Shown here in pieces: positions 2,750 through 20,045 of a stretch of DNA of 32,067 bases (positions within the stretch are counted from its first letter, which is position 1; each line of letters starts with the position of its first letter). Under the pieces are notes generated by a model that did no database searches, was not told the origin of the DNA, and saw nothing but the letters and a program-made list of their open reading frames with translations. Source of the stretch: a virus (lineage: Duplodnaviria > Heunggongvirae > Uroviricota > Caudoviricetes); the IMG/VR virus record IMGVR_UViG_3300001919_000084; one strand, given 5' to 3'. Both the position numbers and the translations under genes were made by a program.

Positions 2750-2779
2750 TGTTAGAAAATGCATGTTAATTATCTAACA
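2750..2779. promoter_or_regulatory. inverted repeat TGTTAGA-N16-TCTAACA (operator-like site 1)
   Basis: tgttagaaaatgcatgttaattatctaaca: 7-bp arms, 16-bp spacer, in the 57-bp gap between the spike-like gene and rdgC. Same architecture recurs at 15025-15054 and 20016-20045. Confidence 0.4.
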
Positions 2780-2795
2780 CAAATGGGTGCATTTT

Positions 2796-3449
2796 CTATC
2801 CTTTCTTGAAATCGAAGTTGCCAGCAGTGGCCTGAAAGGTTCCTCCTGCCTTGAAAGCTATGTCCCCGTTAGCGGTGACAGCTATATTTTCCCCATTAAC
2901 ATTGATGTTGTTGGCTGATTTGACGTTAACACTCCCTCCTGCATTCACGATTACATCAGCCGGACCAATGATATATATCTGCCCGGACTCATTCATGCCA
3001 ATCCTTGAGCCAGCTGCCGTATTGGCAATTTCATAGCCGCCACCAGCAGTTCGTACTTCAAGAATATTGTTGCGGTGAATAACGAAGTCTTTCGTTGCTG
3101 AGATTTGGGGGCGGGGAGGTGCTCCATCTACTTCCGGCGGCGTCCAGCCGTTGCCTTTGCCAGATGCTTCTGGTGCAACGTTTGGAATTCCTCCCGGTGC
3201 ATCCTGAGCGGCACCAACTATCATTGGGCGTCTGGTGTCTATTCGACCGTTAACATCTAAATAAGGAAACTCTACCCAGACCAGGTCACCTTTGACTGTA
3301 GGTACAAAAGCGTTCCCGATGGGTAACTGGTATTCCGCCCAGGGTAGATCGTCATCAGGAACGCCATTCCAGTCAGGTAAAACACGGACTTGAGCACGCA
3401 TAAGCCCTGCCGGGTGCACAGTTCCAACAATTTGCGCTCTACGCTTCAT
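2796..3449 (-). CDS. phage baseplate spike-like protein (gpV/gp5-type OB-fold plus beta-helix)
   Basis: N-terminus IVGTVHPAGLMRAQVRVLPDW...LPWAEYQLPIG...VKGDLVWVEFPY resembles the gp5/gpV/VgrG OB-fold signature. C-terminus carries short G/N/V beta-helix-type repeats (NAGGSVNVKSANNINVNGENIAVTANGDIAF). ATGA overlap with the upstream gene. Confidence 0.5.
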   Translation of the reverse strand: MKRRAQIVGTVHPAGLMRAQVRVLPDWNGVPDDDLPWAEYQLPIGNAFVPTVKGDLVWVEFPYLDVNGRIDTRRPMIVGAAQDAPGGIPNVAPEASGKGNGWTPPEVDGAPPRPQISATKDFVIHRNNILEVRTAGGGYEIANTAAGSRIGMNESGQIYIIGPADVIVNAGGSVNVKSANNINVNGENIAVTANGDIAFKAGGTFQATAGNFDFKKG

Positions 3450-4426
3450 TTGTTCGGCACTCCCAATATCATTCGTGTTGTGTAGCCTACGCGGTCCTCA
3501 AAGTGCGCAACATTTTTTACTATCAGCTTACGGGGCATTGATTCATCAATGCGGTTTTCCTGGTCATAGCGGTATACGATAATCTCTATTACCATCCCCG
3601 GTTTTATATCAGGATTGCCTGCGACTTCTATATCCATTTTGGGGACGAGAGACAGCTGCATATTGCGAAGAGTTTCCATATCAGAGTCGGATATATAACG
3701 CACTGGGAGTGAGCTATCGCCATATTCGACGTAGCCATCGGTCATGGAATACCCAACAAAACGATATTGATTCTTTGCTGTTGACGCATGTTCCTGTTGG
3801 AGTAGGCGCATTTTTGACAAAGTGTATTCTGCTTTAGGGTTATTCCCCTCGTAGGTAAATGATGGCGTTTGCTTCATCAGATCAGCCAGGGTGTAAAAGT
3901 TAAATTCCCCCCGACATACCCAACACAATGCACCTTTGTCTCGCGCTATCTCCGAAAGCATTTTTGACGGTTTGTCACCAGCATTCAGATGATATGTAAC
4001 TGCGCGTTTTAGCACGCTGCTGGTAATTTTAAGCTTGCCGGAATATGCCTTGAATATAGCGTCTGGTGTTTTGTTGGTATGTAAATTTGTGCGCGGGGAG
4101 GGGATCTTAAACCTGCGCACGTCTTCACTGACAGCAATAACGGTAACAACATCACCAGCCAGCATTGCAGACGTAACAAAGAAATCTGTTTTAAAAGTGC
4201 CTGCATTACCGTTTGGATCGCCCATTTCAGCCACCAGCGATGCACCGTATTTGGCTTTCCAGTCATCAATTACGGTGCCGGTAGCGTCATGAATTTCCAG
4301 TTTTAGCAAAGGGGCTTTGAGGCTGGTTTTTTCTACATATACTGCGGTAAAAATCCAGTCTCGTGGCACTTTGTTATCGTTAATGAGCACTGACTGTAGA
4401 AAATATTGTTGTAACTCCTGGGCCAC
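3446..4426 (-). CDS. hypothetical protein (326 aa), possible baseplate-hub partner of the spike-like protein
   Basis: Long ORF with GTG start preceded by GGGGTGA; tightly coupled to flanking genes. Hub assignment is inferred from gene order only. Confidence 0.5.
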   Translation of the reverse strand: MAQELQQYFLQSVLINDNKVPRDWIFTAVYVEKTSLKAPLLKLEIHDATGTVIDDWKAKYGASLVAEMGDPNGNAGTFKTDFFVTSAMLAGDVVTVIAVSEDVRRFKIPSPRTNLHTNKTPDAIFKAYSGKLKITSSVLKRAVTYHLNAGDKPSKMLSEIARDKGALCWVCRGEFNFYTLADLMKQTPSFTYEGNNPKAEYTLSKMRLLQQEHASTAKNQYRFVGYSMTDGYVEYGDSSLPVRYISDSDMETLRNMQLSLVPKMDIEVAGNPDIKPGMVIEIIVYRYDQENRIDESMPRKLIVKNVAHFEDRVGYTTRMILGVPNK

Positions 4427-4429
4427 TTA

Positions 4430-5197
4430 TCACCCCATAGATATCGAGGTTTCGGTAATAATACGTTTTGCGTCCAACTCCCATGCTGTGATCACGTCTG
4501 CAATCACACTTATCGGCGCTTGTGTGGCATAAATACGCTCTTCTCCAATTGGTGCTGAAACATCCGTAAAGCCGACTTCTTTGGCATCCTGTATCGAGCA
4601 AATCAGCGGGACCGGGACACGAACAAGGTGAGTGGTTGCTTCAAATTGTGTACCTGTCATCAGGCGAAGCCGTGCGCCCAGCGAATTACACATCAGACTC
4701 ATGGTCGCTTTATCAGTTGCCATTAACGTAACGTCATACGTCAGAATGGCCTGGGTGTATTCCAGTTCTGCTAAAGGCGTTCCGGTATCTGGTTCGCAAA
4801 AACTGGCTACTTTTTTGCGGTCAATCTGCTGATCATCGTTGATATAATTGATATCCATAGTGCGTGAGATATTGACCAGGGGGAGAGCATCCCGGTTAAT
4901 GTTCTGGTTTTCAGGTTTTCTCCCTTGCCCGGCATTTGCGCGACGAACTGCTTTAAGAAACTCGATCGCATTGTCGAAACGGGCCATATAGACACGCTCT
5001 GCTGGTGGACGATTCAGGAATGACGCAAAGCGTTTTTCTTCCGGCGCGGGGGCCACCAGTAAGATATCAGAAAAAATGTTGCTGATTAGCGTCGCAAACG
5101 CGTTATCCACGTTTTCAAAGCCCGTGGTCTGGAATTTTCCTGTGCGTAAGGTTTGCCATTCACCGGTTCGCGCCAGGAGGGTTTTATTTGAAGTCAT
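4430..5197 (-). CDS. hypothetical protein (255 aa)
   Basis: Long ORF whose ATG overlaps the upstream stop (ATGA); no motif recognised. Confidence 0.5.
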   Translation of the reverse strand: MTSNKTLLARTGEWQTLRTGKFQTTGFENVDNAFATLISNIFSDILLVAPAPEEKRFASFLNRPPAERVYMARFDNAIEFLKAVRRANAGQGRKPENQNINRDALPLVNISRTMDINYINDDQQIDRKKVASFCEPDTGTPLAELEYTQAILTYDVTLMATDKATMSLMCNSLGARLRLMTGTQFEATTHLVRVPVPLICSIQDAKEVGFTDVSAPIGEERIYATQAPISVIADVITAWELDAKRIITETSISMG

Positions 5198-5985
5198 TCG
5201 ATCACTCCGTTTTGAGTCGTATCAAAATTCCTGGCAGGTATGCAGTAGTAAAGCGAACCAACATGCTGTGTGCCGTAGCTAAAAATACGGTGCACGTACC
5301 ACCAGCGGCGGGCTACGCCGTTTACCATCTCTTCATTCCATTCAAGAATTGAGCCGACGGGGACGTTATTTGCTGCAATACGCAGAATCAGAACATCATC
5401 GGTTAAGCCATCCTGCTCACCGTCTGCGTCAATCGCATGGAAAGAGTCACGCCCGTCAGGGTTATCCAGCACATAAACGATTTCAGGTTCCTGGTAAGTC
5501 AGTTCGCGTTGGTTGTTATCCAGTTCAGTGAATGACTCTTCTCCTGTTTCGTCGCTGACTACCCCATATGTGCCAACATCTGGTCGATATAAGAGAGCCT
5601 GAAACGCGTCTGGGCTGGATTCAATAATCAGCATCCAGTCTGCGCGGATTTGGTCGTTAAAGGCTTTATGCCCGTTATAGCGTGCTTTTAGCTGTGGAGT
5701 TGGTTCTCTGCCAGCCAGGGAAGGAGGAAGTATGGCTATATCTGATTCGCCAGCATCCGGAGTAAGGCCACCGTTGCTATCAGCAAAATTATCATGGCTA
5801 TCAGCTTTGGCGGCGGGTTGCTCTTCCAGAATGCTGAATGAATCCGAACCGGTATTGCCATGTTCCGGCGCGCCTCCTGCATTCGCTTCAATCGGCGCTG
5901 GCGTTTCTCTCTGCGTGCTGTCATGTTCTGACTCCTTACTTGCCAGGTTTGCATCGTCAGCAAACCATTCGTCAAAACGGCCCAT
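5194..5985 (-). CDS. hypothetical protein with acidic low-complexity N-terminal half
   Basis: ORF 5194-5997 trimmed to ATG at 5985 (GAGG 6 nt upstream). N-terminal ~100 aa are D/E/S/G/P/A-rich; the C-terminal ~160 aa look globular. First gene of the leftward operon. Confidence 0.5.
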   Translation of the reverse strand: MGRFDEWFADDANLASKESEHDSTQRETPAPIEANAGGAPEHGNTGSDSFSILEEQPAAKADSHDNFADSNGGLTPDAGESDIAILPPSLAGREPTPQLKARYNGHKAFNDQIRADWMLIIESSPDAFQALLYRPDVGTYGVVSDETGEESFTELDNNQRELTYQEPEIVYVLDNPDGRDSFHAIDADGEQDGLTDDVLILRIAANNVPVGSILEWNEEMVNGVARRWWYVHRIFSYGTQHVGSLYYCIPARNFDTTQNGVIE

Positions 5986-6079
5986 AAGCATCCTCAAAGG
6001 TCGATCTGTCAGGTATCGAAAGGAAGATTTTCGGGAGATTGTGATTTTGGATGAAGGAGGGGGAATTCATAAAATGCAC

Positions 6080-6108
6080 TTGCGCACAGTGCAACAGTGC
6101 GCTATAGT
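6080..6108 (+). promoter_or_regulatory. higBA promoter/operator candidate
   Basis: TTGCGC (-35-like), 17 bp, TATAGT (-10-like), with inverted repeat GCGCAC-N9-GTGCGC (6082-6102) and direct repeat ACAGTGC x2 overlapping the spacer; about 40 bp upstream of higB. Confidence 0.4.
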
Positions 6109-6147
6109 TATGGCATTCGGTAATCATCACGGAGGATCAAATGACTA

Positions 6148-6450
6148 ATGACCAAAAAAATTAACATAAAGGATTTCAGGGATGCGTGGCTTGATGATTT
6201 TTTTGAATTTTCAACACCACATAGAAAGATACCTCCTGATATTCATATGACATTGTCACGGAAGTTGGACATTATCAATGCCGCAACTACCTGTAAGGAT
6301 TTAAGATCACCACCAGGTAATCGGTATGAGGAACTGTCAGGGAAGCTAAATGGCTATTCATCAGTAAGGGTGAATAAGCAATATAGGTTAATTTTTAAGT
6401 GGGTTAACGGAAAGGCCGAGGACTTGTATCTCGACCCTCACAAATACTAA
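6148..6450 (+). CDS. higB: HigB-family toxin (RelE/ParE superfamily)
   Basis: 100 aa; KDLRSPPGNRYEELSGKLNGYSSVRVNKQYRLIFKWVNGKAEDLYLDPHKY matches the HigB killer-protein signature; GGAGG upstream; followed by a HigA-like gene. Confidence 0.8.
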   Translation: MTKKINIKDFRDAWLDDFFEFSTPHRKIPPDIHMTLSRKLDIINAATTCKDLRSPPGNRYEELSGKLNGYSSVRVNKQYRLIFKWVNGKAEDLYLDPHKY

Positions 6451-6520
6451 AACAGATACCCGGTTACGGACCGGGTTCTGACCAGAGTCCACTTAATACG
6501 TACGCTAGTAAGGGCAAAAA

Positions 6521-6859
6521 ATGAAACAGGCAACCAGAAAACCGACGACCGTAGGTGATATCCTGCTGTACGAATACCTGGAGCCGTTAGAGCTGAAGAT
6601 CAACGAGTTAGCAGAAATACTTCATGTTCATCGTAACACCGTAAGTGCTCTTGTTAATAATAATCGTAAGCTAACGATGGATATGGCATATCGCCTGGCA
6701 AAAGCATTCGATACTTCTGTAGATTTTTGGATTAATCTTCAGACCGCAGTAGATCTGTGGGAAGTCGAAAATGATATGCGCGTTCAGGAAGAGTTAAGTC
6801 GTATCAATACTGCTGAAAAATTTATTTCTCAGCGGAACCTGAATAAAAAAGCAGCCTGA
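6521..6859 (+). CDS. higA: HigA-family antitoxin (XRE-type HTH)
   Basis: 112 aa; VGDILLYEYLEPLELKINELAEILHVHRNTVSALVNNNRKLTMDMAYRLAKAFDTSVDFWINLQ is a typical HigA HTH; AAGGG upstream. Confidence 0.8.
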   Translation: MKQATRKPTTVGDILLYEYLEPLELKINELAEILHVHRNTVSALVNNNRKLTMDMAYRLAKAFDTSVDFWINLQTAVDLWEVENDMRVQEELSRINTAEKFISQRNLNKKAA

Positions 6860-6880
6860 TATAGTAAAACACATACAAAA

Positions 6881-6908
6881 AGCCCACTTAGCAAGTGGGC
6901 TTTCCTTT
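6881..6908 (+). terminator. rho-independent terminator after higA
   Basis: Stem agcccactt / aagtgggct with loop agc, followed by tttcctttg. Confidence 0.55.
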
Positions 6909-6915
6909 GTAATTA

Positions 6916-7116
6916 ATGAACATTAAACCTATCCGTACAGAACAAGATTATGAGGCCGCACTGCGTGCGGTCAAACCGATGTTCGATAACGAACCGGAAA
7001 TGAATACTCCGGAAGGTGATTTCTTTGAGGTTATGAGTCTTCTCATTGAGGAGTACGAGAAGAAACATTACCCAATTCAGCCACCATCACCTGTTGAATC
7101 TTTTAACTATCCATAA
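6916..7116 (+). pseudogene. HigA/antitoxin-like N-terminal domain fragment lacking an HTH
   Basis: 66-aa ORF MNIKPIRTEQDYEAALRAVKPMFDNEPEMNTPEGDFFEVMSLLIEEYEKKHYPI resembles the N-terminal domain of K-12-type HigA/XRE antitoxins but stops before any HTH; no SD, starts just after a terminator. Confidence 0.35.
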
Positions 7117-7137
7117 TAAAAGTAATCAGGATAAGCT

Positions 7138-7866
7138 ATGATGTCAGAAAAAGTTAAAGATAATCCGTCTATAAATGAAACAGAACTAAAATCATTTTCT
7201 GAAATAATAAAAGATAAAATATTTAACAAGGTTTTTGCATATGTTGTCATTTCTTTTCTAATTTTTAACTGGAAGGATATTTTAATTATATTAAAGTCAA
7301 AGGACGACATCCTATATACATTATCTATTGTTTTTGTTGGTGGTAATGTCCCGTTCTTTGATAATTGGATTGTATCCCCGTGGGTTTATCACTTTGTAAT
7401 CCCATTTGGTTATGGGGTATTTGCATCTGTGTTAGCTCCTATTCTCACACTGAAGATATCTAAGCTAACAAGTAAATTATACACTGAAATAAGATATTTA
7501 GATGAAGATGCTGATTATGATAAAAGAATAGAATTGCAAAGAAAGAAAACAAAGTTAAATCAAGCAACCAATGACGCTAAATATTCAAAACAAATCTTAG
7601 ATGAAAATGAAAATAAACTTAATGACCTAGCTACGAAACAGCGAGAAATTTGTGGCGCGATAAAACTATTGCATTCTGATGTTGGCAGTATTATTGAACT
7701 ATATAAAAATAAGGGGGTTAGCATTGAATCTCCGCAAGATTTATGTGATTTTATAGTCGCTATAAAAAGCACATCATTCTATAATGATGACAAGCATTTT
7801 AATAAATTGGTGTCTGATATTTCCAGTTTGTTTGATAATACTGGAATTGATCTTTCAAAAAAATGA
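7138..7866 (+). CDS. AT-rich membrane protein with cytoplasmic coiled-coil domain (accessory gene)
   Basis: 242 aa; AGGA 7 nt upstream; visibly lower GC than neighbours; predicted hydrophobic helices (VFAYVVISFLIFNW, ILYTLSIVFVGG, VIPFGYGVFASVLAPILTL) followed by a K/E/N-rich helical region. Confidence 0.6.
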   Translation: MMSEKVKDNPSINETELKSFSEIIKDKIFNKVFAYVVISFLIFNWKDILIILKSKDDILYTLSIVFVGGNVPFFDNWIVSPWVYHFVIPFGYGVFASVLAPILTLKISKLTSKLYTEIRYLDEDADYDKRIELQRKKTKLNQATNDAKYSKQILDENENKLNDLATKQREICGAIKLLHSDVGSIIELYKNKGVSIESPQDLCDFIVAIKSTSFYNDDKHFNKLVSDISSLFDNTGIDLSKK

Positions 7867-7872
7867 AAGCCC

Positions 7873-7911
7873 AGCATAAACTACTAGGCTATGTGTGGTT
7901 TATGCTTTTTT
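7873..7911. terminator. bidirectional terminator between convergent genes
   Basis: Stem agcataaac / gtttatgct with a 16-nt loop and a T6 run; overlaps the 3' end of the minus-strand gene. Confidence 0.45.
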
Positions 7912-9093
7912 CACGTACTCTATAAACATCTTCTCAGCCTGTTCTTGTGGCGTTCCAGCCATGACAAGCGCATCAATGAACGCCTGCTTCTTCAGTGCGA
8001 ACTGATCGGCAAGGCGTTGCTGAAGTTCCTTATTTTTCTGTTTCTCACGTTGCAAGGCCGCTTCTTTTGCAGCCGCCCGTTTTTTCTGTGCGTCTGACAA
8101 CTTTCTGGCCCTGGTCAATTGGTCACGTAGCTTGTCGATCTTGCCGTTGTCCTTTGCCAGTTTTGTACTTAAAGCTGCCTGGCGCTTCTGATAGAGCCTC
8201 CATTCGCGTTTGGCGGCTTCAACGTTCGTTTTACTGCTACGATTGCGATTAAACTCCTTCTCGTCTTCTTTTGAGAAGTGTTTGGTTGTACGGCGGCGAT
8301 CGTCACCAAATGCAATTTGCGTTGCAGCCTTTTGTAGCGCACGAGCAATACTCATTTGCCAACTGGCGGACTGTAACCGCGTCATTGAGTGGATCACGTG
8401 TTTACAGGCGACGCCTTGCAGCTTCGGGTTGCGAACTTTTGGATAGGCGTATTCTTTTGGCGGTGCCAGGGCAAAGTTACCCGCAGTGGCGATGTAACGA
8501 TACCAGTATTGATGACGACCACAGTCACAATCGAAAGACACTCGCCCGGCGCACAGTGATTTAGTGATTTTGAGAGCTGATTTATCGTCTTCTGCGATGT
8601 CATCAACCATCTGATCCCATTCTTCAAAGCGTATCCGGACGATATGGTGCTGGTGGACGGATATATCCGATGCTTCTACGCGGATATTAATCACATTGTG
8701 GCGAAGAGATACGGGTGTAGCTCTTTTGATACCAGATCCGTCATCCACGGCGTTATTTGCACGCTTAATATCGATTGCCTGGCTGGATGCCACCAGCTGG
8801 GCGTATGTGATGCCAGCCGTCTTGCTGTCATATTTTTCGCGCGTTTTACTCCGTAGCTTTTCGAAACCTTTCAGGTCGTCTCGCGTGAAGAACGTGCCGC
8901 CTTTTTTCTTCCCTAACTTGAGAATATCTTCGGCGGATTTGTTCCTCAGTCTACCTGGCGTCAGCGTCCGGTGAGCTTGTCGGCGCTTACGGGTTTGTTC
9001 TTTCCTGATAAGCTCGAATAAACGCGTGAAGTCCTTAGAGGACAGGCCGTCAGTGATATAGCGCCCGTCCTGGTTTTTCAGGAAATCAGGCAT
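7900..9093 (-). CDS. hypothetical protein with SWIM-type CxC...CxH motif and K/R/E/Q-rich coiled-coil tail
   Basis: 397 aa; FDCDCGRHQYWYRYIATAGNF...ACKHV fits a SWIM zinc-finger pattern; C-terminal 120 aa are charged and helical. Confidence 0.55.
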   Translation of the reverse strand: MPDFLKNQDGRYITDGLSSKDFTRLFELIRKEQTRKRRQAHRTLTPGRLRNKSAEDILKLGKKKGGTFFTRDDLKGFEKLRSKTREKYDSKTAGITYAQLVASSQAIDIKRANNAVDDGSGIKRATPVSLRHNVINIRVEASDISVHQHHIVRIRFEEWDQMVDDIAEDDKSALKITKSLCAGRVSFDCDCGRHQYWYRYIATAGNFALAPPKEYAYPKVRNPKLQGVACKHVIHSMTRLQSASWQMSIARALQKAATQIAFGDDRRRTTKHFSKEDEKEFNRNRSSKTNVEAAKREWRLYQKRQAALSTKLAKDNGKIDKLRDQLTRARKLSDAQKKRAAAKEAALQREKQKNKELQQRLADQFALKKQAFIDALVMAGTPQEQAEKMFIEYVKKA

Positions 9094-9415
9094 TTTCTAT
9101 CTCCGGTTCCGCGCTCGCGTAATCACGGATCTTGTTCCTCAGCCATGCCACATCAGGAAGAGTTAACGTGGTCCCGGCGGGCATTTCTTCCATTTCTGAC
9201 TCATGGCCCACCAGCACCCGGAATACCCAGCGCAAATCTGCATTGCCATACGCCCGGTAGGCTGCAAGGTCTGAACGATATACTTCATCAATCTTTATCG
9301 TGTACTGGAAATTATCAGAGTGATACTCCGATACCCGCTTAATCATTTCCTGGTGAAACAGCGCACGAAAAATATCGTCTTCAATGTACCTATCGTCGAG
9401 TCTGCTATAGCCCAT
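9086..9415 (-). CDS. hypothetical protein (109 aa)
   Basis: ATG at 9415 with GAGAGG 7 nt upstream; 8-nt overlap with the downstream gene. Confidence 0.55.
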   Translation of the reverse strand: MGYSRLDDRYIEDDIFRALFHQEMIKRVSEYHSDNFQYTIKIDEVYRSDLAAYRAYGNADLRWVFRVLVGHESEMEEMPAGTTLTLPDVAWLRNKIRDYASAEPEIENA

Positions 9416-9608
9416 AACAAAGCCTCTCAGTCATAACCTGGGGGAAACTGTATGCAGGGTGTGAAATGCGAGAAACAGACAGGCCACCAGTTCAGGGGGA
9501 TGTGGCTCATAAATCCCCTCACTGGTGACAAGTGACTTTCATTAATCTTTATGCGGGGGCCAGCTTCATTTGCTGGCATTAGATTAAAAATTAAACGGAG
9601 TGAATGAC

Positions 9609-9743
9609 ATGGATGTTATCTTCGAATTATTAATTCTAATTGATCTGTTTATGAACGCTTCATTGACCACTCAAATACTCGCGTCAATATTTTTGTTACT
9701 CTTCTACCTGGTGTTGAGGGAGTTAACAAAGCTACTAATGTGA
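9609..9743 (+). CDS. small hydrophobic peptide (44 aa), candidate
   Basis: MDVIFELLILIDLFMNASLTTQILASIFLLLFYLVLRELTKLLM; GGAG 9 nt upstream; lies in a 328-bp gap between two minus-strand genes and ends next to the convergent stop codon. Too short for the ORF track. Confidence 0.25.
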   Translation: MDVIFELLILIDLFMNASLTTQILASIFLLLFYLVLRELTKLLM

Positions 9744-10397
9744 TCAAAGTATCACGGTATCTTCATCAACTTCTTTCCCAGCCAGTGACTTTGGCTGGGA
9801 GGTGCCTGCTTTAACTTTTTCATGCCCAATAATGGAAAGGAACGAAGCGAGTATGCCTGTTTTTTGCTCTTTCTCGACTGTACCGGTCATCTGCTCTACG
9901 TAATCCGCACTGGCAACGTTGTGGTATACGGTCGCGTAGCAACACAGGATCATCAGAATATGCTCCGGCCTGATATCCTGCCAGTTCACCCTGTAGACTT
10001 CTTCTCCGTTACCGTTGTATTCGGTATCAACGATAGAGTCGGGGATTTCGAAAGCACCTTTGTTATTTTGCGGCAGGGATAATAGTTTCTGGAGTTTTAA
10101 CTCTTTGTATCTTTCCATCCCGACGATGATTGCTGCTCTACCATCGGCATGACGGGTCTTGAGAGTCACCTGGCTTGCTCCGGTGCCAGCGGAGATCGTT
10201 GGCGTAATTTCGTCTACCAGTACCTTAAATTTGCTTTTCCGCAGGGCTGCTATAGCTGGAGGAATTTTTTGCTTTTGCTCCAATGCTGACGCGGGAAGGG
10301 GTTTTACTTCGTTAATAATGAGAGCACCGTCTTTCAGTATTGCAGTGAGCATTTGAGGCTTGCTGGTGGTCAGGCTGAATATTGCGATCTTTTCCAT
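9744..10397 (-). CDS. hypothetical protein (217 aa)
   Basis: ORF 9744-10439 trimmed to ATG at 10397 with strong SD GGAGGAAGGA 7 nt upstream; the listed first codon is GTG. Confidence 0.6.
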   Translation of the reverse strand: MEKIAIFSLTTSKPQMLTAILKDGALIINEVKPLPASALEQKQKIPPAIAALRKSKFKVLVDEITPTISAGTGASQVTLKTRHADGRAAIIVGMERYKELKLQKLLSLPQNNKGAFEIPDSIVDTEYNGNGEEVYRVNWQDIRPEHILMILCCYATVYHNVASADYVEQMTGTVEKEQKTGILASFLSIIGHEKVKAGTSQPKSLAGKEVDEDTVIL

Positions 10398-10424
10398 TGT
10401 CCTTCCTCCACGGATGACGGATAC

Positions 10425-10449
10425 AAAAAAAGGCCGCACATGGCGGCCT
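10425..10449 (-). terminator. leader terminator/attenuator candidate upstream of the 9744-10397 gene
   Basis: On the minus strand: aggccgc-catgt-gcggcct followed by T7, ending about 27 nt before the ATG at 10397. Confidence 0.45.
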
Positions 10450-10742
10450 GCTTTGGCGTTATGACTCCCTACCGCGCTTCGGCTGAAAGTTAATCGTCAA
10501 AAGAACCTTCAACGGGAGCCGTTAGCGCGATGGATTATGTGCAGTTTGTGATTTCCAAAATAGTGTCAACCACTTTTTGTGGATTTTATTTTTTGACAGA
10601 AATTTGGCCTAAATCATGTTGATTTGGCTGATTATTTTTATAACATAAAAGTCATTTTGATTGCATGAAGGACGGTGCAGTGAAGTTAAGGGTTTTAGGG
10701 ACCGCGCTCGCGGCTAAGATGGTAAGGTATGGAGTTAATGAA

Positions 10743-11564: not shown

Positions 11565-11571
11565 TTGATAT

Positions 11572-11600: not shown

Positions 11601-11603
11601 GCT

Positions 11604-12384: not shown

Positions 12385-12443
12385 CGTGCGGAGAATCCGG
12401 TTATTTAGTAGTTAAAGCCCCGGACAGGCCGGGGCAACAGTAA

Positions 12444-13370
12444 TTAACTAACAATCCAGTCCGTAGCAACAACATCCTCTGGAGCTAAATCAATCGCATG
12501 GATTTTCCCATCCCGGATAGTGCGCCAGTGCTTTCGTGATCCACCTTCGGGCCATACCCATACACCTTCAGGCCAAGATGCTCGACGGCATACGATTGCA
12601 TACCCTGTTTTAATCCTCTCTCTGGCGGTATGCAACGACAGGTTTGCCTTTGGACTTTCAGGCACAGGATGGTGGATTGCCTGAAACATCCCCATCTTTG
12701 GATGATACCAGCGTTTATTGCGTGGTTCTGCCTCCGACATCACCTGCTTAAAGGCTTTCCGGAAGGGGGCCAGGGCCACAATGGAGCGTCTCGCAAGCAA
12801 ACCATCTGGAGTTAAAAACTCATGCGTATCGGTGGGAATCCGGTAAGCGTTGACAAGGTTGCGGCATTTGGCTTCAGTCAGGCCACATTTCGCCGCCAGC
12901 TGGCGGTAGCCAATGTAGCCTTCCGGCATATTGCCTTTCTTGATTTGCTCGACGGTTTCAGCGACTTTGGACACTTGTGCCGATACTTCGGCTACCTGGG
13001 CATTAACGGCGTTGATCCGGCGTTCATGCTCAAGATGCATTTGCGCCATTTCAGCCAGGATTTCGGCTTTTGATTTTAACTGTACCCGGGCATTCTCCAG
13101 TTCGCGCCAGCGGTCCACCAGCCGGGCGGTAAATTCGGGAGAGAGCTGTGCGACGACGACAATACTATCGCGCTTGCCTTGCTCGCCTTCGAAGACGTAA
13201 TAGCTCGCCGGGCGGCCTGCGGTGGGCTTTTCCTCAATTTGAGGAAAAGATATTACCCCCCGTTCCGCCAGGTGTTCAATGGTGCGTTTAACGTTATCAG
13301 GGCGCTTACCTACCAGTTCCGCGATCTCAATGCTGGTCATTGTCGCTTTTTGAGAGATGGACAGATTCAT
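12444..13370 (-). CDS. Rha/Ant-family phage antirepressor-like regulatory protein
   Basis: 308 aa; N-terminal MTSIEIAELVGKRPDNVKRTIEHLAERGVISFP resembles the Rha/Bro-N regulatory domain; ATG overlaps the stop of the upstream small gene (ATGA). Confidence 0.65.
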   Translation of the reverse strand: MNLSISQKATMTSIEIAELVGKRPDNVKRTIEHLAERGVISFPQIEEKPTAGRPASYYVFEGEQGKRDSIVVVAQLSPEFTARLVDRWRELENARVQLKSKAEILAEMAQMHLEHERRINAVNAQVAEVSAQVSKVAETVEQIKKGNMPEGYIGYRQLAAKCGLTEAKCRNLVNAYRIPTDTHEFLTPDGLLARRSIVALAPFRKAFKQVMSEAEPRNKRWYHPKMGMFQAIHHPVPESPKANLSLHTARERIKTGYAIVCRRASWPEGVWVWPEGGSRKHWRTIRDGKIHAIDLAPEDVVATDWIVS

Positions 13371-13585
13371 CAGTGCACCTCCACGCAGTTCATCGGCAGA
13401 TTCCAGTAATTGAGGATCTCCATCGCATCAAGAGTGAAGCGAGCAGCAAAAATGCAGGGTTCTTCGGGAAGGTATGAGCGCGCTTCTGCTTCGGTTGCAG
13501 CCATGACGCAGATATAGAGGTGTTTTTGGCAGGAATAGAAACGCCAGATAAATTCAGAATGAGTTGGGGTGGGGATAGTAGCCAT
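13370..13585 (-). CDS. small protein translationally coupled to the antirepressor gene (icd-like position)
   Basis: 71 aa; strong SD AAGGAGG 8 nt upstream of ATG at 13585; its stop overlaps the antirepressor ATG. Confidence 0.5.
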   Translation of the reverse strand: MATIPTPTHSEFIWRFYSCQKHLYICVMAATEAEARSYLPEEPCIFAARFTLDAMEILNYWNLPMNCVEVH

Positions 13586-13700
13586 ATTGGCAGCCTCCTT
13601 TGACTAAGTTAAGGAGCTACCGCGTGAGGTTCCAATCTCAATGGCGGTAGCACTGACTGGGTTGGAACTACCGGCGTCAAAGGGAACCGGCCTGCCTTTC
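13586..13700 (-). promoter_or_regulatory. structured 5' leader of the small-gene/antirepressor operon
   Basis: On the mRNA strand a CTCCTT segment lies 10 nt upstream of the AAGGAGG SD and can pair with it; further complementary pairs are gctaccgc/gcggtagc and ggttccaa/ttggaact. Confidence 0.3.
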
Positions 13701-13898
13701 GGCAGCCCAGCCAGCACTACCATTGATCTCTGAGCTAAACGCTACGTATGGCTGTGCGATGGCATGACACAAAAAAAGACGCTTTCGGCGTCTGTGTCGC
13801 CTTTGACATTATCCGGGGTTCCAATCCCGGCACCCGTTTTTCTAAGGTGCCGTAGAAATATACCCCACGATAATGCCAGGGCGCAACAGTCTGTATTT

Positions 13899-14066
13899 TT
13901 ATGCTTTGGTGGATTTCTTCCTGGCTTGCTTGCAGGCGTAGGCCATTGCTTTAGCCTTCACTTCATCCAGCTTCCCGGTGATCACTTCTTTTCCGAGAGT
14001 GACAAACCAGTCATAGCAACCGCCAGTGATGTTCTGGATTTGAAAGTTGAGGTAGCGAACGGTCAT
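13899..14066 (-). CDS. small protein (55 aa), candidate
   Basis: ATG at 14066 with GGGGGTG 5 nt upstream; MTVRYLNFQIQNITGGCYDWFVTLGKEVITGKLDEVKAKAMAYACKQARKKSTKA. Preferred over the overlapping plus-strand ORF 13764-14144. Confidence 0.3.
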   Translation of the reverse strand: MTVRYLNFQIQNITGGCYDWFVTLGKEVITGKLDEVKAKAMAYACKQARKKSTKA

Positions 14067-14397
14067 TTTGACACCCCCAGCGCGAGTAAAGAATGCAGAT
14101 TATCGCGTGAGTGGTGGACGACGAGTGATGGGGAAAGACTGTAGTTGTTCATAGTGTAGTGACTCCTTGCTTTCGGAGCCGCCATCGACTGTTCCACGGT
14201 CTGGTGGCGGCGCAATAAAGGCTGGAACACCGTGAGTCAACGGGGGCTTTTCAGCCACCTATATTGCACCGCCATAGGTATGGCGGCGGCAATAATACGA
14301 AAAACTAAATAGTTTGTCTCAAAAAGTTGACCGGTGTGCCAATCGGTAGTGAATGTACATCGGAGTGTTTTTCAATTCAACTTAAAATGTTAGAAAA

Positions 14398-14976
14398 CTA
14401 ATTTATCAATTCAATCGCCATCAGATACAACGTCATTTCATCGGCATTGTGCCGCATGAAATCTGCTTTTCCGCCTATTTTTCCATCAGCATGAACAGGG
14501 ACCAGCCAGGGATATTGGTCTCGGACCTCGGCTGGCGCTGCGTACTGGTGGTGCCATTTACACAAAGGGAGGACATATTTATGCGCGTTCTCTGCCGTTC
14601 TCCCGAAGATATGGTGCAGGGATACCACTGGGCTATGTTGCCCGTGAATATGGCAGGCAATGCAGGGGAGAGTACCGATAGCGGTCTGTATCCGGCGTTC
14701 ATCGGCTGTGAGTGATCTGCCCTTCAGGCCGCGTGACGTGCGTGTTTTTTTGGGCGGAGCGGATACAGATTTATCTTTTCTCCGCTGTTCATATTGTTTT
14801 GCTTTTTCAATTTTCTTTTGCCGATATTCAGGCGATGCGGCTTTTTCTCTCGCTCGCTGCTGCTGGCGTTGAGCTTGTTGAAGGCGCTTTGCCCTTTGTT
14901 CCTCTCGCCAGGCCGGGTCAGCCAATTTTTGCATGGCTTTTTGTCTCTGTTTCTCCCAATAACTCTGTTTCTGCAT
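14398..14976 (-). CDS. Ref-like HNH-type nuclease (recombination enhancement function-like)
   Basis: 192 aa; N-terminal ~85 aa K/R/Q/E-rich, C-terminal LPCIACHIHG...SLHHIFGR...LPLCKWHH Cys/His motif. Architecture and size fit P1 Ref as I recall it. Confidence 0.5.
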   Translation of the reverse strand: MQKQSYWEKQRQKAMQKLADPAWREEQRAKRLQQAQRQQQRAREKAASPEYRQKKIEKAKQYEQRRKDKSVSAPPKKTRTSRGLKGRSLTADERRIQTAIGTLPCIACHIHGQHSPVVSLHHIFGRTAENAHKYVLPLCKWHHQYAAPAEVRDQYPWLVPVHADGKIGGKADFMRHNADEMTLYLMAIELIN

Positions 14977-15024
14977 GATGGCAGTCTCTTACTTTTCAAC
15001 GATTTTTCTATGATTGATTAAAAT

Positions 15025-15054
15025 GGTTAGATATTCAAAATTGATTTTCTAACA
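15025..15054. promoter_or_regulatory. inverted repeat GTTAGA-N16-TCTAACA (operator-like site 2) with embedded promoter-like hexamers
   Basis: ggttagatattcaaaattgattttctaaca in the divergent region between the Ref-like gene and the rightward operon. TTGATT (15041-15046) and TAATAT (15063-15068) are spaced 16 bp. Confidence 0.4.
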
Positions 15055-15096
15055 CAAAACATTAATATCATCACTGATAAATGTTTGGAGGACATG

Positions 15097-15249
15097 ATGC
15101 TTATAGCTTTAAGTGCGATCCACCAGCCATCTGTGAATGAGATTGGCCTGTTCTATGTGTTTTTTTTCGGGGCGTTGGCGCTACTTGAATTAGGTATTGA
15201 GCTTTTTGCCGTGCTGATGTTTTTCGTCACGATGCTGGGGAAATTTTGA
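15097..15249 (+). CDS. small hydrophobic membrane peptide (50 aa)
   Basis: GGAGG at 15087-15091, ATG at 15097; MLIALSAIHQPSVNEIGLFYVFFFGALALLELGIELFAVLMFFVTMLGKF; its TGA overlaps the next ATG. Confidence 0.4.
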   Translation: MLIALSAIHQPSVNEIGLFYVFFFGALALLELGIELFAVLMFFVTMLGKF

Positions 15250-15872
15250 TGGTGAGATGTGTTTTGAAAATTTACATCGCGGGGCCGATGACTGGTTATC
15301 CCGACTACAACCGCACAGCGTTTTTTTCGAAAGCAAAAGAGCTGATGGAGGAAGGGCATATTGTTCTGAATCCGGCGCTGTTACCTGCTGGCCTCTGCCA
15401 GAGCGAATACATGGATATTTGTCTGGCAATGGTGCGTTCTGCTGATGCGATCTATCTGCTTAAGGGATGGGATGTGTCCGCAGGAGCACGTGCAGAACAC
15501 GCTCTGGCTGAAAAACTGGGGTTGACGGTAATTTATGAAGCACCATCTGACACAGATTGCAGAATGGCAGCGCATCTTTACCGTGAACTGGTCGATGCAT
15601 TACGTGATGTTGCTATTGAATGTCACGGCACGGATCAGCTTCGCGCCCGCTTAAGCAATACCCTTTCCAGTTACCTGTCTTTAGCTGAAGGATACAACCT
15701 CCGGCAGCGGAGAATGGTCAAATTAATCACGCGTTTATCTCAATCCCTGGCAAATGCCGAACCAACTAATCCGCTACCTAATGACGCAATGAATTATCTG
15801 AAGTCATGCGGCGTTGTTTCTGAAGATGCAGTTCGTTTTGTGGAGTTTATGTCTCAGAGGATGTCGGCGTGA
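15249..15872 (+). CDS. DUF4406 (nucleoside 2-deoxyribosyltransferase-like) protein with C-terminal extension
   Basis: KIYIAGPMTGYPDYNRTAFF...HIVLNPALLP...ADAIYLLKGWDVSAGARAEHALAEKLGLTV fits the DUF4406 pattern; C-terminal segment LYRELVDALRDVAIECHGTDQLRARL is shared with the 23425-24627 protein. Confidence 0.6.
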   Translation: MVRCVLKIYIAGPMTGYPDYNRTAFFSKAKELMEEGHIVLNPALLPAGLCQSEYMDICLAMVRSADAIYLLKGWDVSAGARAEHALAEKLGLTVIYEAPSDTDCRMAAHLYRELVDALRDVAIECHGTDQLRARLSNTLSSYLSLAEGYNLRQRRMVKLITRLSQSLANAEPTNPLPNDAMNYLKSCGVVSEDAVRFVEFMSQRMSA

Positions 15873-16186
15873 GCTGGCGGGGATGGGGAAGGGCAGAAAT
15901 CATGATACTCCGCCAGTGCGCCGGAACTATGACGGTCGAGAGTATTGGGAAGCTGATCGGTCGTACCGGTGATGCCGTCAGGACTAAAGCGCGGGAGTTG
16001 GGGATCAGCATGATTCTGAAAGGAGACTTTCATCCGTCAGCCAAATACCGGCAGAGCGATATAGAACTGGCACGGCAGCTTCATCAGTGTGGTGTTCCCC
16101 GCCGTGAGATCGCGGAAAAACTCGAAATGCCCCTGGGCATGATTAATCAGTACGTTTATTTCGAAAGGAGAGTGTATGAAGTCTGA
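15869..16186 (+). CDS. putative HTH DNA-binding protein
   Basis: 105 aa, GTG start overlapping the upstream stop (alternative ATG at 15902); TVESIGKLIGRTGDAVRTKARELGI and VPRREIAEKLEMPLG look like HTH segments. Confidence 0.45.
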   Translation: MSWRGWGRAEIMILRQCAGTMTVESIGKLIGRTGDAVRTKARELGISMILKGDFHPSAKYRQSDIELARQLHQCGVPRREIAEKLEMPLGMINQYVYFERRVYEV

Positions 16187-16685
16187 AGGTTTAACGCCCG
16201 CACAACTGGCAGAGCGTAACGCTGAGTATGTAACGGAAATTTCCCGACTTGAGAAAGAGCGCGCGGCGCTGGCTGCGGAGAATGCGAGACTGAAGGCGAT
16301 ATGTGAGGATCGCCGCACGTTCATTATGAATGGCGTGCAGCTTGGTTTTATCAAGGTGCCAACAGTGGAAATAGATCCAGCTCTTGAAACAATTCGTATC
16401 GCCCTATCACCACAAAAAACTACTCCTGCGACCGACACTTTCCTGGATGAAGTGAAGACTGAAGCACGCAAGGAGGGCGCTTACTTTGTGGCGAACAGAA
16501 TGCTGGCTGCCTGGGTAGCTGGTTTTATTGATGATACTGCGAAGAACGCCGCGGATATTGCCCGGATGATTCTTACCTCTACTGAGTTTATGGCTAATGC
16601 GCCGGAAGGCGATTTTGACCGCTCATTCTCTGATGGCGTTCTCGAAGATATCGCCGAACAGCTTCGTAAAGGAGTCATCCAGTGA
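16176..16685 (+). CDS. Ea22-like coiled-coil protein (paralog 1)
   Basis: AAAGGAG 5 nt upstream; [17 protein letters not shown] coiled coil; C-terminal domain TPATDTFLDEVKTEARKEG...EQLRKGVIQ is paralogous to 17670-18455. Confidence 0.55.
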   Translation: MKSEGLTPAQLAERNAEYVTEISRLEKERAALAAENARLKAICEDRRTFIMNGVQLGFIKVPTVEIDPALETIRIALSPQKTTPATDTFLDEVKTEARKEGAYFVANRMLAAWVAGFIDDTAKNAADIARMILTSTEFMANAPEGDFDRSFSDGVLEDIAEQLRKGVIQ

Positions 16686-17350
16686 GCGAGCTTTATTATC
16701 AGACGTTACGTGAACGTTTTTCACCGAAACCAGCGCCTAAATGCTCTGTTTGTGGCGAGGAAATGTCAATGCAGCGCATATCTGGATCACATGTTGTTTA
16801 TGCCTGTTCTGGCATGGAGGAAGACGGATGCTTCAAAACTGGACGAACTTATGCTGACGAGCATTACAAAAAATCGCGCATAACAGTAGTTGATGATAGC
16901 GATCCTGATGTGATTGAACTGCTGGACGAGAACGTGGAGATGGCTCTAACGCTTGAGAATCTGCGTGTTGAGCTGGAAGCCGCTAAAAAGTGTATTGCAG
17001 AGCTGGAAAGCAATTGCGGGGCGCTGGTGGCGGAATGCCAAAACAAAAAAGCAGCACTTGAGGAAATTCTTAGCCATCTCCCAATTAATCATCCAGATAT
17101 AGACATCGCATGTGTAGCGAACATAGCTCATAACAAATTAGGCGAGGTGAAAAGCACTACATCTGAAGCTTACCTTGTTGAAATACAGGCTCAGGGATTG
17201 GAGGCATTCGCTTTGACGATGCGCGATACCGGAGATGATCCATTTTTTGATTCCGTTGCTTCTGCTTGCGCGGATGCGGCTGACAGGTTCGCAGCCCTGC
17301 TTCGTAAAGGACAATCCTGCCTGCGCCCGAACTTTGAAGGGAAAAGATGA
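16682..17350 (+). CDS. coiled-coil protein with N-terminal CxxC zinc-ribbon-like motif
   Basis: GTG start overlapping the upstream stop (caGTGAgc); [24 protein letters not shown]; [30 protein letters not shown] coiled coil. Confidence 0.5.
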
Positions 17351-17673
17351 TGACCACATCGCATTCTGCAATTACCCAGGAAAAAGCCTTCCACATACTC
17401 GAACGATTAGAAACGCTCGCTACGGAGGAGAAGATATCCCCGGAGATGCTGGTCGAGTGCAGCCGTGTGATATTGCGTCGCAAGAACGACATCGCGCGGC
17501 TGACATCTGGCGCACCATCCGTATCAGCCAGTCCAACGCTTTATTGCAGCTTCTGTAACAAATCCCAGCACACCGTTAAAAAGTTAATTGCCGGGGACAA
17601 CGTTTTCATCTGCAACGAGTGCGTGAAAGATTGCAACAACATTATCCAGGAAGAGCAAAGGGAATCAGCATGA
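17347..17673 (+). CDS. small protein with ClpX-type zinc-binding domain
   Basis: 108 aa; C-terminal [36 protein letters not shown] matches the ClpX N-terminal C4 zinc-finger signature; ATGA overlap with the upstream stop. Confidence 0.65.
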
Positions 17674-18455
17674 AATTTTCCAAATTTTCTGAGTTGGTGA
17701 ATCGTATTTTGTCCAACAACCACAGCCATCGTCGCGATATGGATGTAACGATCGTTGTTCATTCGCCTGGTCGCATCGGTTCAACACCATCAGTTGAGGT
17801 TCAGTCAATTCAGGTGGGTTTTGATTGGGATGCCGGGCAAGTGATGATTTTTCCAGCACAGCCACTGACCACGCTAACACCAGAACAGATTACTGATATT
17901 ACTGATAGTGTGCGCAAAGGTCAGTCCTGGCACGCATATCAGGAATACAAGAAGCATAAAGAGCAGTTGGAAAAATTATCGATTGAACTTGATGCCGCAA
18001 AACAGCGCATTGCAGAGCTGGAGGGTAATTGCGCGGCGCTGGCGGCGGAGAATGCGGGAATAAAGTCTGCAATTCCAGAATCACGGGATATTGAGGATGA
18101 CAATGACAATATGGATGACGTATCTCTCGCGGAAGATTTCGGGTTCAATCATGCAATAGAACTGATGAGGAGACGGATTCCTGAAACTCCGGCCACCGAC
18201 GCTTTCCTGGCTGAAGTACGTGCGGAGGCACGCAACGAGGGGATTAACTACACCGCAAGCCGTCTTGCTGCTGCGTTCAATCACGGATTTATCAATAAGT
18301 CTTTGCGTGAAGTTTTCGACGTTACACGCATGATTTTGTCAGCGAAAGAAGAGTTGGCTAATGAACCGCATCCGCTTGATGGCCTGTCCGGTGAATATGC
18401 GGAGAAATCCCTTGAAGAATGGGCGGAACAGATTCGCAAAGGAAGCAGCCAGTGA
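17670..18455 (+). CDS. Ea22-like coiled-coil protein (paralog 2)
   Basis: ORF 17619-18455 trimmed to ATG at 17670 overlapping the upstream TGA; [23 protein letters not shown] coiled coil; C-terminal [19 protein letters not shown]...EQIRKGSSQ. Confidence 0.55.
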
Positions 18456-18772
18456 ATATCGACACCACGATAACGCTCGATACGGCCCTAAATACCGGTC
18501 TGGCACTTCTCGGTTGGCTTTACATCATGTCCCGTACATGGCGATGGCTGGGTTCCATTTTCCTGAAACAGTGGAAAAAACGGCGCAAACAGGAACTACG
18601 CCAGAAGGCATTAGAAGCGTTCNNNNNNNNNNNNNNNGAACTACGCCAGAAGGCATTAGAAGCGTTCTATGACGCATTTGAACTTGGCAGCATTGAACCA
18701 GGCACAACAGCGAGGATAGCGACAAAAGGCGACCTGATGATAGTGATGTTCAGACAGGAGAAAACAAAATGA
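18452..18772 (+). CDS. small membrane protein, reading frame interrupted by an assembly gap
   Basis: GTG start overlapping the upstream stop; hydrophobic LNTGLALLGWLYIM; contains N-run 18623-18637 flanked by an exact 30-bp duplication, so length and frame are unreliable. Confidence 0.35.
   Translation: MNIDTTITLDTALNTGLALLGWLYIMSRTWRWLGSIFLKQWKKRRKQELRQKALEAFXXXXXELRQKALEAFYDAFELGSIEPGTTARIATKGDLMIVMFRQEKTK
18623..18637. other. assembly gap (15 N)
   Basis: Run of n; the 30 bp before and after (gaactacgccagaaggcattagaagcgttc) are identical, suggesting an unresolved overlap join. Confidence 0.95.
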
Positions 18773-18993
18773 CAGAACAGACGATGACAAATCGCGAACT
18801 TGTTGATGCCGCGATTGAACTTGCTGGCGATTTTTATTCCATGATGGGTTACGAGCATCGACCTGGTTTTAAGTATTGGGAGTCACCGCATCCGCAAGAA
18901 CAACAGGTGTTTGAAATGGCTTGCCGTGCTTTTGAGTTTATTCGCGGTTCTGATGTGATGGATGCCGTTGCCGACTTGGAGGATGAAGAGTGA
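18769..18993 (+). CDS. hypothetical protein (74 aa)
   Basis: AGGAG 8 nt upstream of ATG at 18769; ATGA overlap with the upstream stop. Confidence 0.5.
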   Translation: MTEQTMTNRELVDAAIELAGDFYSMMGYEHRPGFKYWESPHPQEQQVFEMACRAFEFIRGSDVMDAVADLEDEE

Positions 18994-19301
18994 GCACAAT
19001 TAAAGAAATGCCGGTAGAACGTGATGAATATGGCTGCTGGACACATCCGGAGTATGAAAAGTTTTGCGCAGGCCGTGAATATATTTCCACTGAGGAATTT
19101 GACGCCTGGATGAAGGAAAATAATCTTCAGTGGACTATTCGCAGTATGGATGAAGATGATTTTGATCTGGACGCAGCTGGTCCCGATATTGCCGCCTGGG
19201 AACCGGAGCGACCAGAGGGTGAAGGCTGGTTTGTTGGCTCTATTCATGACACTGAAGATGGTCCAGTTTGTATCTGGCTGCGGGAGAAGGTTGCCGCATG
19301 A
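18990..19301 (+). CDS. hypothetical protein (103 aa)
   Basis: GTG start with GGAGG 7 nt upstream, overlapping the upstream stop; acidic protein. Confidence 0.45.
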
Positions 19302-19990
19302 TCCAGGCTATGCATGAAGTGAATTTATATAGCCGTATTGATGGTTCTGGCTACAGAAACATATGGGTTGTTGGTGATCTGCATGGTTGCTACACCAGAC
19401 TGATGTCCGAACTCCATCGTGTGGATTTTGACCCGGCGCAGGATTTACTGATATCGGTTGGCGACCTTATCGATCGCGGTACTGAAAATGTCGAATGTCT
19501 GGAACTATTGCAGATGCCCTGGTTCAGGGCAGTAATGGGGAACCATGAGCGGTTGATGCTTGATGCGTTAAGTCCTGATGGCAACGTGAATAACTGGCTA
19601 ATGAATGGCGGACAATGGTTCTTCATGCTGGACACTGATCAGGAAATATTAGCCAAGGCGCTGGTGGAGCTGGTAAAGCGTCTGCCATATATCATTGAGT
19701 TGAACACCGGGCATGAAACTATCGTTATAGCCCATGCCGACTATCCAGGTGGAGAGTACCAGTTCGGTAAGGATGTGTCGCTTTTTGATGTTGTCTGGTC
19801 GCGCAGTCGCGTCGGTGATTCGATAGATGGCATTGGTGGAGAAATCACAGGCGCAGATCGCTTTATCTTTGGGCACACACCGGTACGAAGACCAAAAGCA
19901 TACTGGAATCAGCACTACATAGACACGGGCGCGGTTTTTTGCGGAAATCTGACGCTAATGCAGGTGAAGGGAGGGCAGCTTAAAGTCTGA
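19298..19990 (+). CDS. serine/threonine protein phosphatase (PPP family)
   Basis: ORF 19268-19990 trimmed to ATG at 19298 (ATGA overlap); metallophosphatase motifs GDLHG, GDLIDRG, GNHE. Confidence 0.8.
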
Positions 19991-20015
19991 TCAAATCATT
20001 TACGCACTCATAATT

Positions 20016-20045
20016 TGTTAGAACATTGATTTTAGTTTTCTAACA
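20016..20045. promoter_or_regulatory. inverted repeat TGTTAGA-N16-TCTAACA (operator-like site 3)
   Basis: tgttagaacattgattttagttttctaaca; ends 43 bp before the ATG at 20088, the same offset as site 2 from the ATG at 15097. Confidence 0.4.

Follow-up and report, generated by a model that had tools for sequence, protein, structure and literature searches.

The C1 repressor of phage P1 is described as acting at 22 dispersed operators that share an asymmetric 17-bp consensus, ATTGCTCTAATAAATTT (PMC8546580), and the genes ref, dmt, kilA, ssb and ban are under its control (PMC4713147). The P1 sequence record annotates C1-controlled operators of two kinds, 'monovalent' and 'bivalent'; Oc1ab, for example, consists of two inverted 17-mers that overlap by 6 bp and span 28 bp in total. 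The operators are placed as follows: Oref lies before ref, Omat on the ref stop codon, Odmt before uhr-hrdC-dmt, Oc4 before c4-icd-ant, OrepL before kilA-repL, Olpa before lpa, and several more before c1. Here we analyse a set of candidate operators in IMG/VR virus record IMGVR_UViG_3300001919_000084, a stretch of 32,067 nucleotides that we call the window, and compare it with the C1 system of P1.

Sequence identity of the window is about 100% to 92-kb plasmids from Salmonella and Escherichia coli (for example, NZ_CP092628) and about 95% to Escherichia phage D6; at least 80% of the window is covered in 43 plasmid records. The window belongs to a plasmid prophage of the D6 type, which is distantly related to P1. 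Phage-plasmids of this type are common in both E. coli and Salmonella.

A preliminary description of the window drew attention to an inverted repeat, TGTTAGA-N16-TCTAACA, at three operon boundaries. It proposed that the repeats are a dispersed operator set for one dimeric regulator and offered a C1-like regulon as one hypothesis. Are these repeats operators, and if so, what is the unit that the protein reads? We conclude that, very probably, C1 of a D6-like phage-plasmid has a dispersed set of operators, of which these repeats are the bivalent members. This reading is carried by the motif itself, by its distribution and conservation, by the homology of the c1 product and by the parallel in position with the operators of P1.

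Results

Searching the window for TGTTAGA-N16-TCTAACA with up to two mismatches gives three matches, at 2750–2779 (site 1), 15025–15054 (site 2) and 20016–20045 (site 3). Shuffled windows gave a mean of 0.11 matches, and three were reached in none of 100 shuffles. The 16-bp spacing is exact at all three sites. The claim that the arms are the same throughout holds for sites 1 and 3, which are exact copies; at site 2 the left arm is GGTTAGA, one mismatch. TTGATT is present in the spacers of both site 2 and site 3, as had been reported. Both sites were also said to end 43 bp before an ATG. The distance is right for site 3 (ATG at 20088); at site 2 there are tandem ATGs, at 15094 (the start given by the Prokaryotic Genome Annotation Pipeline, PGAP) and 15097 (the start in the D6 record), and the distance fits only the second.

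What is the unit of recognition? When all TCTAACA copies on the plasmid are listed in context, the 7-bp arms prove to be the ends of a longer, asymmetric 17-bp motif, AAATTAGTTTTCTAACA. Both the information profile and the existence of single copies point to an asymmetric operator of about 17 bp. In a matrix scan each 30-bp 'palindrome' resolves into two inverted 17-mers with a 4-bp overlap, and the window as a whole contains three such pairs, three single copies and one weak copy. The bare 7-mer is modestly enriched in the window (nine copies vs 3.4 in shuffles, with a shuffle maximum of 11). For the extended core TTTTCTAACA the counts are five in the window vs 0.11 in shuffled sequence, and ten in the whole plasmid vs 0.20. 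Two intragenic copies of the 7-mer, at 22027 in the window and 57583 in the plasmid, are without the extended motif and look like chance.

The sites are dispersed, lie between genes and stand at operon starts, as the operators of a P1-type regulon do. Annotation covers 89.8% of the D6 genome, and all 16 D6 sites fall within the remaining, unannotated 10.2%; the motif does not occur at similar frequency in coding DNA. With no prior assumption about the motif, TGTTAGAAAA emerges as the commonest and most over-represented 10-mer of D6 intergenic DNA. Outside the window, further sites on the plasmid lie before orf52, lpa, repL and a second icd-ant module, and around pmgS. The idea of a dispersed operator set for one regulator is supported by these results.

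Site 1 is placed by annotation between a baseplate gene and the hrdC(rdgC)-methyltransferase operon and ends 13 nucleotides ahead of the hrdC/rdgC ATG (2736). Its gene-proximal half (2750–2766, minus strand; ACATGCATTTTCTAACA, matching 13/17 consensus positions) is conserved in relatives and is the positional analogue of P1 Odmt. The distal half (2763–2779, plus strand) reads ATGTTAATTATCTAACA. Site 2 has the divergent ref gene on one side and, on the other, the rightward orf88 operon, of which ppp is the last gene. The half that faces ref is weak (15025–15041, minus strand, 10/17); the half that faces the orf88...ppp operon is strong (15038–15054, plus strand, 15/17) and is the analogue of P1 Oref. 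Site 3 separates ppp from a pdcB-like DUF968 gene and has a distal half at 20016–20032 (minus strand, 14/17) and a strong proximal half at 20029–20045 (plus strand, 15/17). In P1, ref and dmt do bear C1 operators (Oref and Odmt), and the sites in the window occupy the same positions.

The preliminary description, essentially right about the three pairs, was incomplete: it missed three single copies and a weak one. The single copy at 14388–14404 (minus strand) is a perfect match to the consensus. It sits on the ref stop codon, as Omat does in P1, and upstream of orf86/85, an isrK-like RNA, the C4 RNA, icd and ant, where it is the functional analogue of P1 Oc4. The copy at 30154–30170 (minus strand, 15/17) sits on the stop codon of dre, 59 nucleotides upstream of the leftward orf117-dut operon. 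The copy at 31564–31580 (minus strand, 15/17) is 12 nucleotides upstream of the c1 start codon and is a putative autoregulation site. The weak, operator-like sequence at 31474–31490 (plus strand, 12/17) lies 100 bp upstream of c1.

The regulator had been described as not identified in the window, which is incorrect. The 5' part of a c1 gene, 158 of its 345 codons, occupies the last 476 nucleotides (31592–32067, plus strand), directly downstream of one of the sites, and the gene runs past the window end. Its full 345-residue product is 100% identical to the 'c1, prophage repressor' of the D6 records, and relatives carry the precomputed Pfam assignment PF27008, Phage_P7_repressor_C1. Compared with P1 C1 it has 21% identity over 240 collinear residues (E 2e-8); it is a distant homologue of the C1 repressors of P1 and P7. 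The family is small, with 59 cluster representatives at E ≤ 1e-3 among 1.84 billion proteins. Sequence searches with C1 gave no function: there was no family in the local Pfam copy, the PHROG match (1678) is labelled 'unknown', and no PDB match was returned.

The positions of the sites are held across relatives whose C1 proteins are 44–100% identical. Across 31 c1 loci with C1 identities of 79–100%, three sites are conserved in position: one at -33 (c1), one at about -1430 (orf117) and one at about +4400 (lpa). The one at -33 is invariant. The core TTTTCTAACA is found at equivalent places in contigs where C1 is 51% or 44% identical. Among 29 IMG/VR contigs that carry ref, there is next to no variation in the single copy that overlaps the ref stop codon and none in the strong arm of site 2; the weak arm retains TTAGA, with its outer bases and the next four nucleotides free to vary. 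One lineage keeps the 30 bp of site 2, as a 14+2+14 palindrome, between flanks that are unrelated. At site 3, 35 contigs have the same proximal arm ahead of pdcB, and variation at the first two positions of the distal arm is uncompensated. A P1-type ref locus (L039, 49% identity) has a P1-type operator, ATTGCTCTAATAGTTAT, instead.

In more distant relatives, operator core and spacing seem to shift along with the repressor. Near a C1 homologue of 36% identity there are ATCTAA-type repeats (L073, 7100–7172), including ATTTAGA-N14-TCTAAAT, and more distant hrdC loci (L100 and L101) have TGTTAGA-N14-TCTAAAC. A separate observation concerns the promoter-distal arms of sites 2 and 3. At and just outside them, four to six nucleotides (15019–15026 and 20010–20017) are hypervariable among near-identical relatives, with both flanks conserved; the bases before TTAGA are, for example, TG, CA, CC, TA, CT or GA.

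How many of the sites are paired? Each strong site was checked for a second arm at 16-bp spacing. The partner arm matches 7/7 at hrdC and at pdcB, 6/7 at ref/orf88 and 5/7 at lpa and at the second ant module, the last value having a background probability of about 1%. The ref-stop site and pmgS-dn1 reach 4/7, which is within chance (about 7%). At the same spacing, c1, repL, orf117, orf52, pmgS-up and pmgS-dn2 have 2/7 or less. Two-fold symmetry, expected of every functional copy if the operator were a dimer site, is not a property of this set.

At site 1, and only there, the promoter scanner found a qualifying sigma-70 site: TAGAAA-18-GATAAT on the minus strand, whose -10 hexamer (2774–2769) overlaps the distal operator. 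Read by eye, site 2 has TTGATT-N16-TAATAT (TTGATT at 15040–15045) and site 3 has TTGATT-N17-TATTTT, each with the strong operator inside the spacer; we infer this promoter geometry from the sequence.

The window also contains what a P1-type C1 regulon has as its antirepressor arm. A C4 antisense RNA of the immI module (Rfam C4, 77 bits) is at 13640–13727 on the minus strand, upstream of icd (13370–13585) and ant (12444–13370), and an isrK-like RNA (63 bits) at 13772–13850 on the same strand is likewise upstream of icd-ant. C4-icd-ant is the antirepressor arm of the C1 circuit. A second icd-ant module is found on the plasmid outside the window. In the PGAP annotation an 'ash family protein' coding sequence (13604–13723) overlaps the C4 RNA and is probably mis-called.

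What kind of protein reads an asymmetric site in single copy? An AlphaFold2 model of the D6-type C1, built from an alignment of 45 sequences, has a mean predicted local distance difference test score of 93 and a predicted template modelling (TM) score of 0.73. Against the PDB, Foldseek gives only four significant matches, all E. coli Tus-Ter complexes, with E from 1e-7 to 2e-6, probability 1.00, about 310 aligned columns and TM scores of 0.31–0.44; the next match has E 0.2. A BFVD fold search with the model returned nothing. Tus itself is monomeric and uses inter-domain beta strands to clamp Ter, an asymmetric site (PMC2811178). The predicted Tus-like fold fits monovalent, asymmetric operators, a fit that does not prove homology. 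C1 may likewise be a monomeric clamp that reads an asymmetric site through inter-domain beta strands.

At the level of sequence the support for a link with Tus is weak, with a consistent register. Aligned by hhalign with a single Tus sequence, the C1 family places C1 residues 85–188 on Tus 145–257 (E 0.004, probability 8%); a useful Tus profile could not be built, because every homologue retrieved was at least 81% identical. One of the 45 family members, P0056, matches Pfam Ter with E 0.015 and 14.8 bits (cutoff 22), its residues 105–172 aligning with profile positions 170–239. C1 itself does not pass the Pfam Ter model (PF05472), and a profile search of the PDB finds no Tus. TerB (AAGTATGTTGTAACTAAAGT, PMC4499146) and the operator (AAAATGTTAGAAAACTAATTT) have ATGTT...AACTAA in common if a gap of two nucleotides is allowed; we regard this as a curiosity, not as evidence. 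Our literature search found no paper that links C1 and Tus. Whether the C1 repressors of P1, P7 and D6 are Tus-fold proteins that share ancestry with Tus is, in our estimate, evenly balanced. We consider it unlikely that C1-operator complexes function as polar barriers.

By annotation, hrdC/rdgC (1831–2736, minus strand) heads the operon that site 1 would control, and two DNA methyltransferase genes (1167–1946 and 269–1231) come after it. The ref-like gene for a RecA-dependent nuclease (14398–14976, minus strand) has operators on either flank. The nearest gene downstream of site 3 is the pdcB-like DUF968/HNH gene (20088–21083, plus strand).

Several other features of the region deserve mention. 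An exact rox site (TAACTTTAAATAATGCCAATTATTTAAAGTTA) is at 31350–31381, between dre (30169–31197, minus strand) and c1; it is overlapped by an 11/12 sigma-70 match, TTGGCA-16-TATAAT (31368–31341, minus strand), directed to dre. The 32-kb window has 25 Chi sites (GCTGGTGG, both strands) where about one is expected, and related contigs show the same excess. An iteron-like repeat, TTGAGGGCA, forms a cluster around the repA-like gene of D6 (D6 45710–46880), with one lone copy in the window at 24875.

Discussion

The results fit a model in which C1 would bind an asymmetric 17-bp operator with the consensus 5'-AAATTAGTTTTCTAACA-3'. At least 12 operator loci would be spread over the element of about 92 kb, each in a short intergenic gap that heads an early-lytic or immunity operon: hrdC-dmt, ref, orf88-ppp, pdcB, orf117-dut, lpa-pacAB, repL, the two C4-icd-ant modules and c1. 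Each locus would be either monovalent, with one copy, or bivalent, with two inverted copies that overlap by 4 bp; of the three best bivalent loci, the preliminary description would have picked up the outermost 7 bp. C1 bound at its operators would block sigma-70 promoters, by occlusion or as a roadblock, and so keep the prophage silent, and the Ant antirepressor, restrained by the C4 RNA, would relieve repression. The C1-like regulon suggested earlier is the best explanation and is correct in kind.

Several findings weigh against this model. The promoter scanner calls nothing at sites 2 and 3, where the hexamers that we read by eye match only 8/12. Within three mismatches the P1 consensus has no match in the window, and a comparison of the P1 and D6 operator matrices is not significant, within the null. 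The assignment of the sites to C1 is drawn from analogy and co-occurrence. Finally, the outer 7 bp on either side of site 1 co-vary between lineages, which a pure protein-site model does not predict.

Might the 30-bp repeats instead be symmetric operators bound by a repressor dimer of the conventional kind, whether of C1 or of some other protein, with the single copies as minor half-sites? The preliminary description had such a dimeric regulator in mind. The three loci with 6–7/7 partner arms at exactly 16 bp, and the two with 5/7, speak for pairing; neither arm of site 1 varies between lineages, site 2 has become a 14+2+14 palindrome in one of them, and the extra C-terminal helical hairpin in the model of D6-type C1 could mediate self-association. 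Yet seven strong sites are without a partner (2/7 or less, or 4/7), among them c1, repL and orf117, and these three hold their positions down to 44% C1 identity. About half of the operator loci lack a partner arm, and the unit is a 17-mer that is asymmetric over its whole length. At sites 2 and 3 the distal arms are free to vary and show no compensating changes; in one relative (L098) the left arm of site 1 is destroyed and the right arm kept. P1 has the same mixture of monovalent and bivalent sites, with asymmetric operators (PMC8546580), and the fold predicted for C1 resembles that of monomeric Tus. An obligate symmetric dimer site is disfavoured because single and paired sites are mixed and the consensus is asymmetric, and we judge this alternative distinctly improbable.

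A second alternative takes the repeats to be nucleic-acid hairpins, either RNA stem-loops that act in termination, mRNA stability or translational control, or DNA cruciforms. The three repeats do fold better than shuffled sequence (-7.6 to -10.9 kcal/mol, z -2.9 to -4.2), and the strongest case is site 1. Here an extended palindrome (2737–2792, minus strand) prolongs the arms by 7 bp on each side (CCATTTG...yAAATGG) to 14 bp, and on the gene-sense strand the RNA hairpin has a predicted energy of -18.8 kcal/mol, its 14-bp stem reaching the Shine-Dalgarno sequence of hrdC. The flanks pair as CCATTTG/CAAATGG, CCAATTG/CAATTGG, CCAATTA/TAATTGG or GCAAAACTG/CAGTTTTGC, depending on the lineage, with double-sided compensatory changes in at least three lineages. 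This covariation is not a shift in C1 specificity, because other operators in the same lineages are without those flank changes. The stem may be a second regulatory layer on read-through late transcripts. Quasi-palindrome correction by template switching could yield covariation of this sort, and the pattern at site 1 may equally be its neutral product; at most, the hairpin is a second layer at that site. Extended, co-varying flanks and compensation are absent from sites 2 and 3. The stems are weak and AU-rich, with 16-nucleotide loops and no U-tract, a terminator scan of the three sites was negative, and the single-copy sites, unable to form hairpins, have the same 17-bp motif and equal conservation. 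We give the hairpin explanation very little credence. Hardly credible at all is the proposal that the motif belongs to Lpa-dependent late promoters or to a host factor and not to C1. The element does encode an Lpa homologue, one site lies between a capsid gene and orf52, and others flank pmgS. The TCTAACA sites, however, stand before early and immunity genes, among them c1 and lpa itself, and Lpa is not their reader, because the morphogenesis operons have a conserved motif of their own upstream, AAATCACA-N7-TAnnnT. This motif is found upstream of tail, head and mat operons, at 6040–6047 and 10547–10554 (minus strand) in the window and at 25234, 27740, 38128, 45504, 54137, 67406 and 72113 in D6. 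Read as its reverse complement, the P1 -22 late box (tGTGACtt) is similar to the AAATCACA box, and the motif is probably the D6 counterpart of the Lpa-dependent late promoters of P1; the window shows no enrichment of WGTGACTT, the late-box pattern of P1.

Why does a C1 operator set matter? Knowledge of the operators and of the regulon provides a map of the cargo and lytic genes that are silent in lysogens. The operator sequence is a basis for predicting immunity groups among phage-plasmids, and repressor and operator together would be orthogonal parts beside the Dre/rox system already in use. If the Tus-like fold is real, it would explain a long-standing oddity, the asymmetry of the 17-bp P1 operators, and C1-operator complexes could block transcription or replication of the plasmid prophage in an orientation-dependent manner. 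Confirmation of the fold would show in structural terms how asymmetric operators are recognised in the P1 family, and it would hint at the origin of Tus.

How does this system compare with others? Lambda CI and Cro also have sites that overlap promoters and also regulate themselves, but their sites are symmetric, dimer-bound and clustered at one or two loci, whereas those described here are asymmetric and dispersed. Tus-Ter differs in that Tus has no significant sequence similarity to C1, in that it arrests forks where C1 represses transcription, and in that the operators are not oriented around the plasmid in a fork-trap pattern. Phage D6 (NC_050154 / MF356679; immC AY753669) encodes an identical c1 product and has all of the window sites at the same places; the distal arms of its sites 2 and 3 are more degenerate (GATTAGA and CGTTAGA). 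The D6 records annotate no operators, and a full-text literature search turned up nothing relevant on them; the D6 operators may possibly have been published already.

The closest described systems are those of P1 and P7. The consensus differs (ATTGCTCTAATAAATTT in P1 vs AAATTAGTTTTCTAACA here), and the TCTAA pentamer is all that they have in common, which is not significant. The overlap in Oc1ab is 6 bp (28 bp in all) vs 4 bp (30 bp) here, and C1 has 283 residues in P1 vs 345 here, where there is an extra C-terminal helical region. Upstream of c1, no coi is annotated in the present element and rox/dre is found instead, and, unlike P1, the element has two C4-icd-ant modules. There are likenesses too. 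P1 and P7 have homologous C1 repressors (PF27008) and asymmetric 17-bp operators in many copies dispersed at early and immunity promoters, some of them monovalent and others bivalent, the latter made of two inverted, overlapping 17-mers. P1 in particular shares orthologous targets in matching positions (dmt, ref, the ref stop codon, c4, repL, lpa and c1), an antirepressor module of C4 RNA, icd and ant, and an operator preceding c1. Because the operator does not match the P1 consensus, we see the same kind of system with a different specificity: the C1 regulon of this element is of the kind known from P1, and it is heteroimmune.

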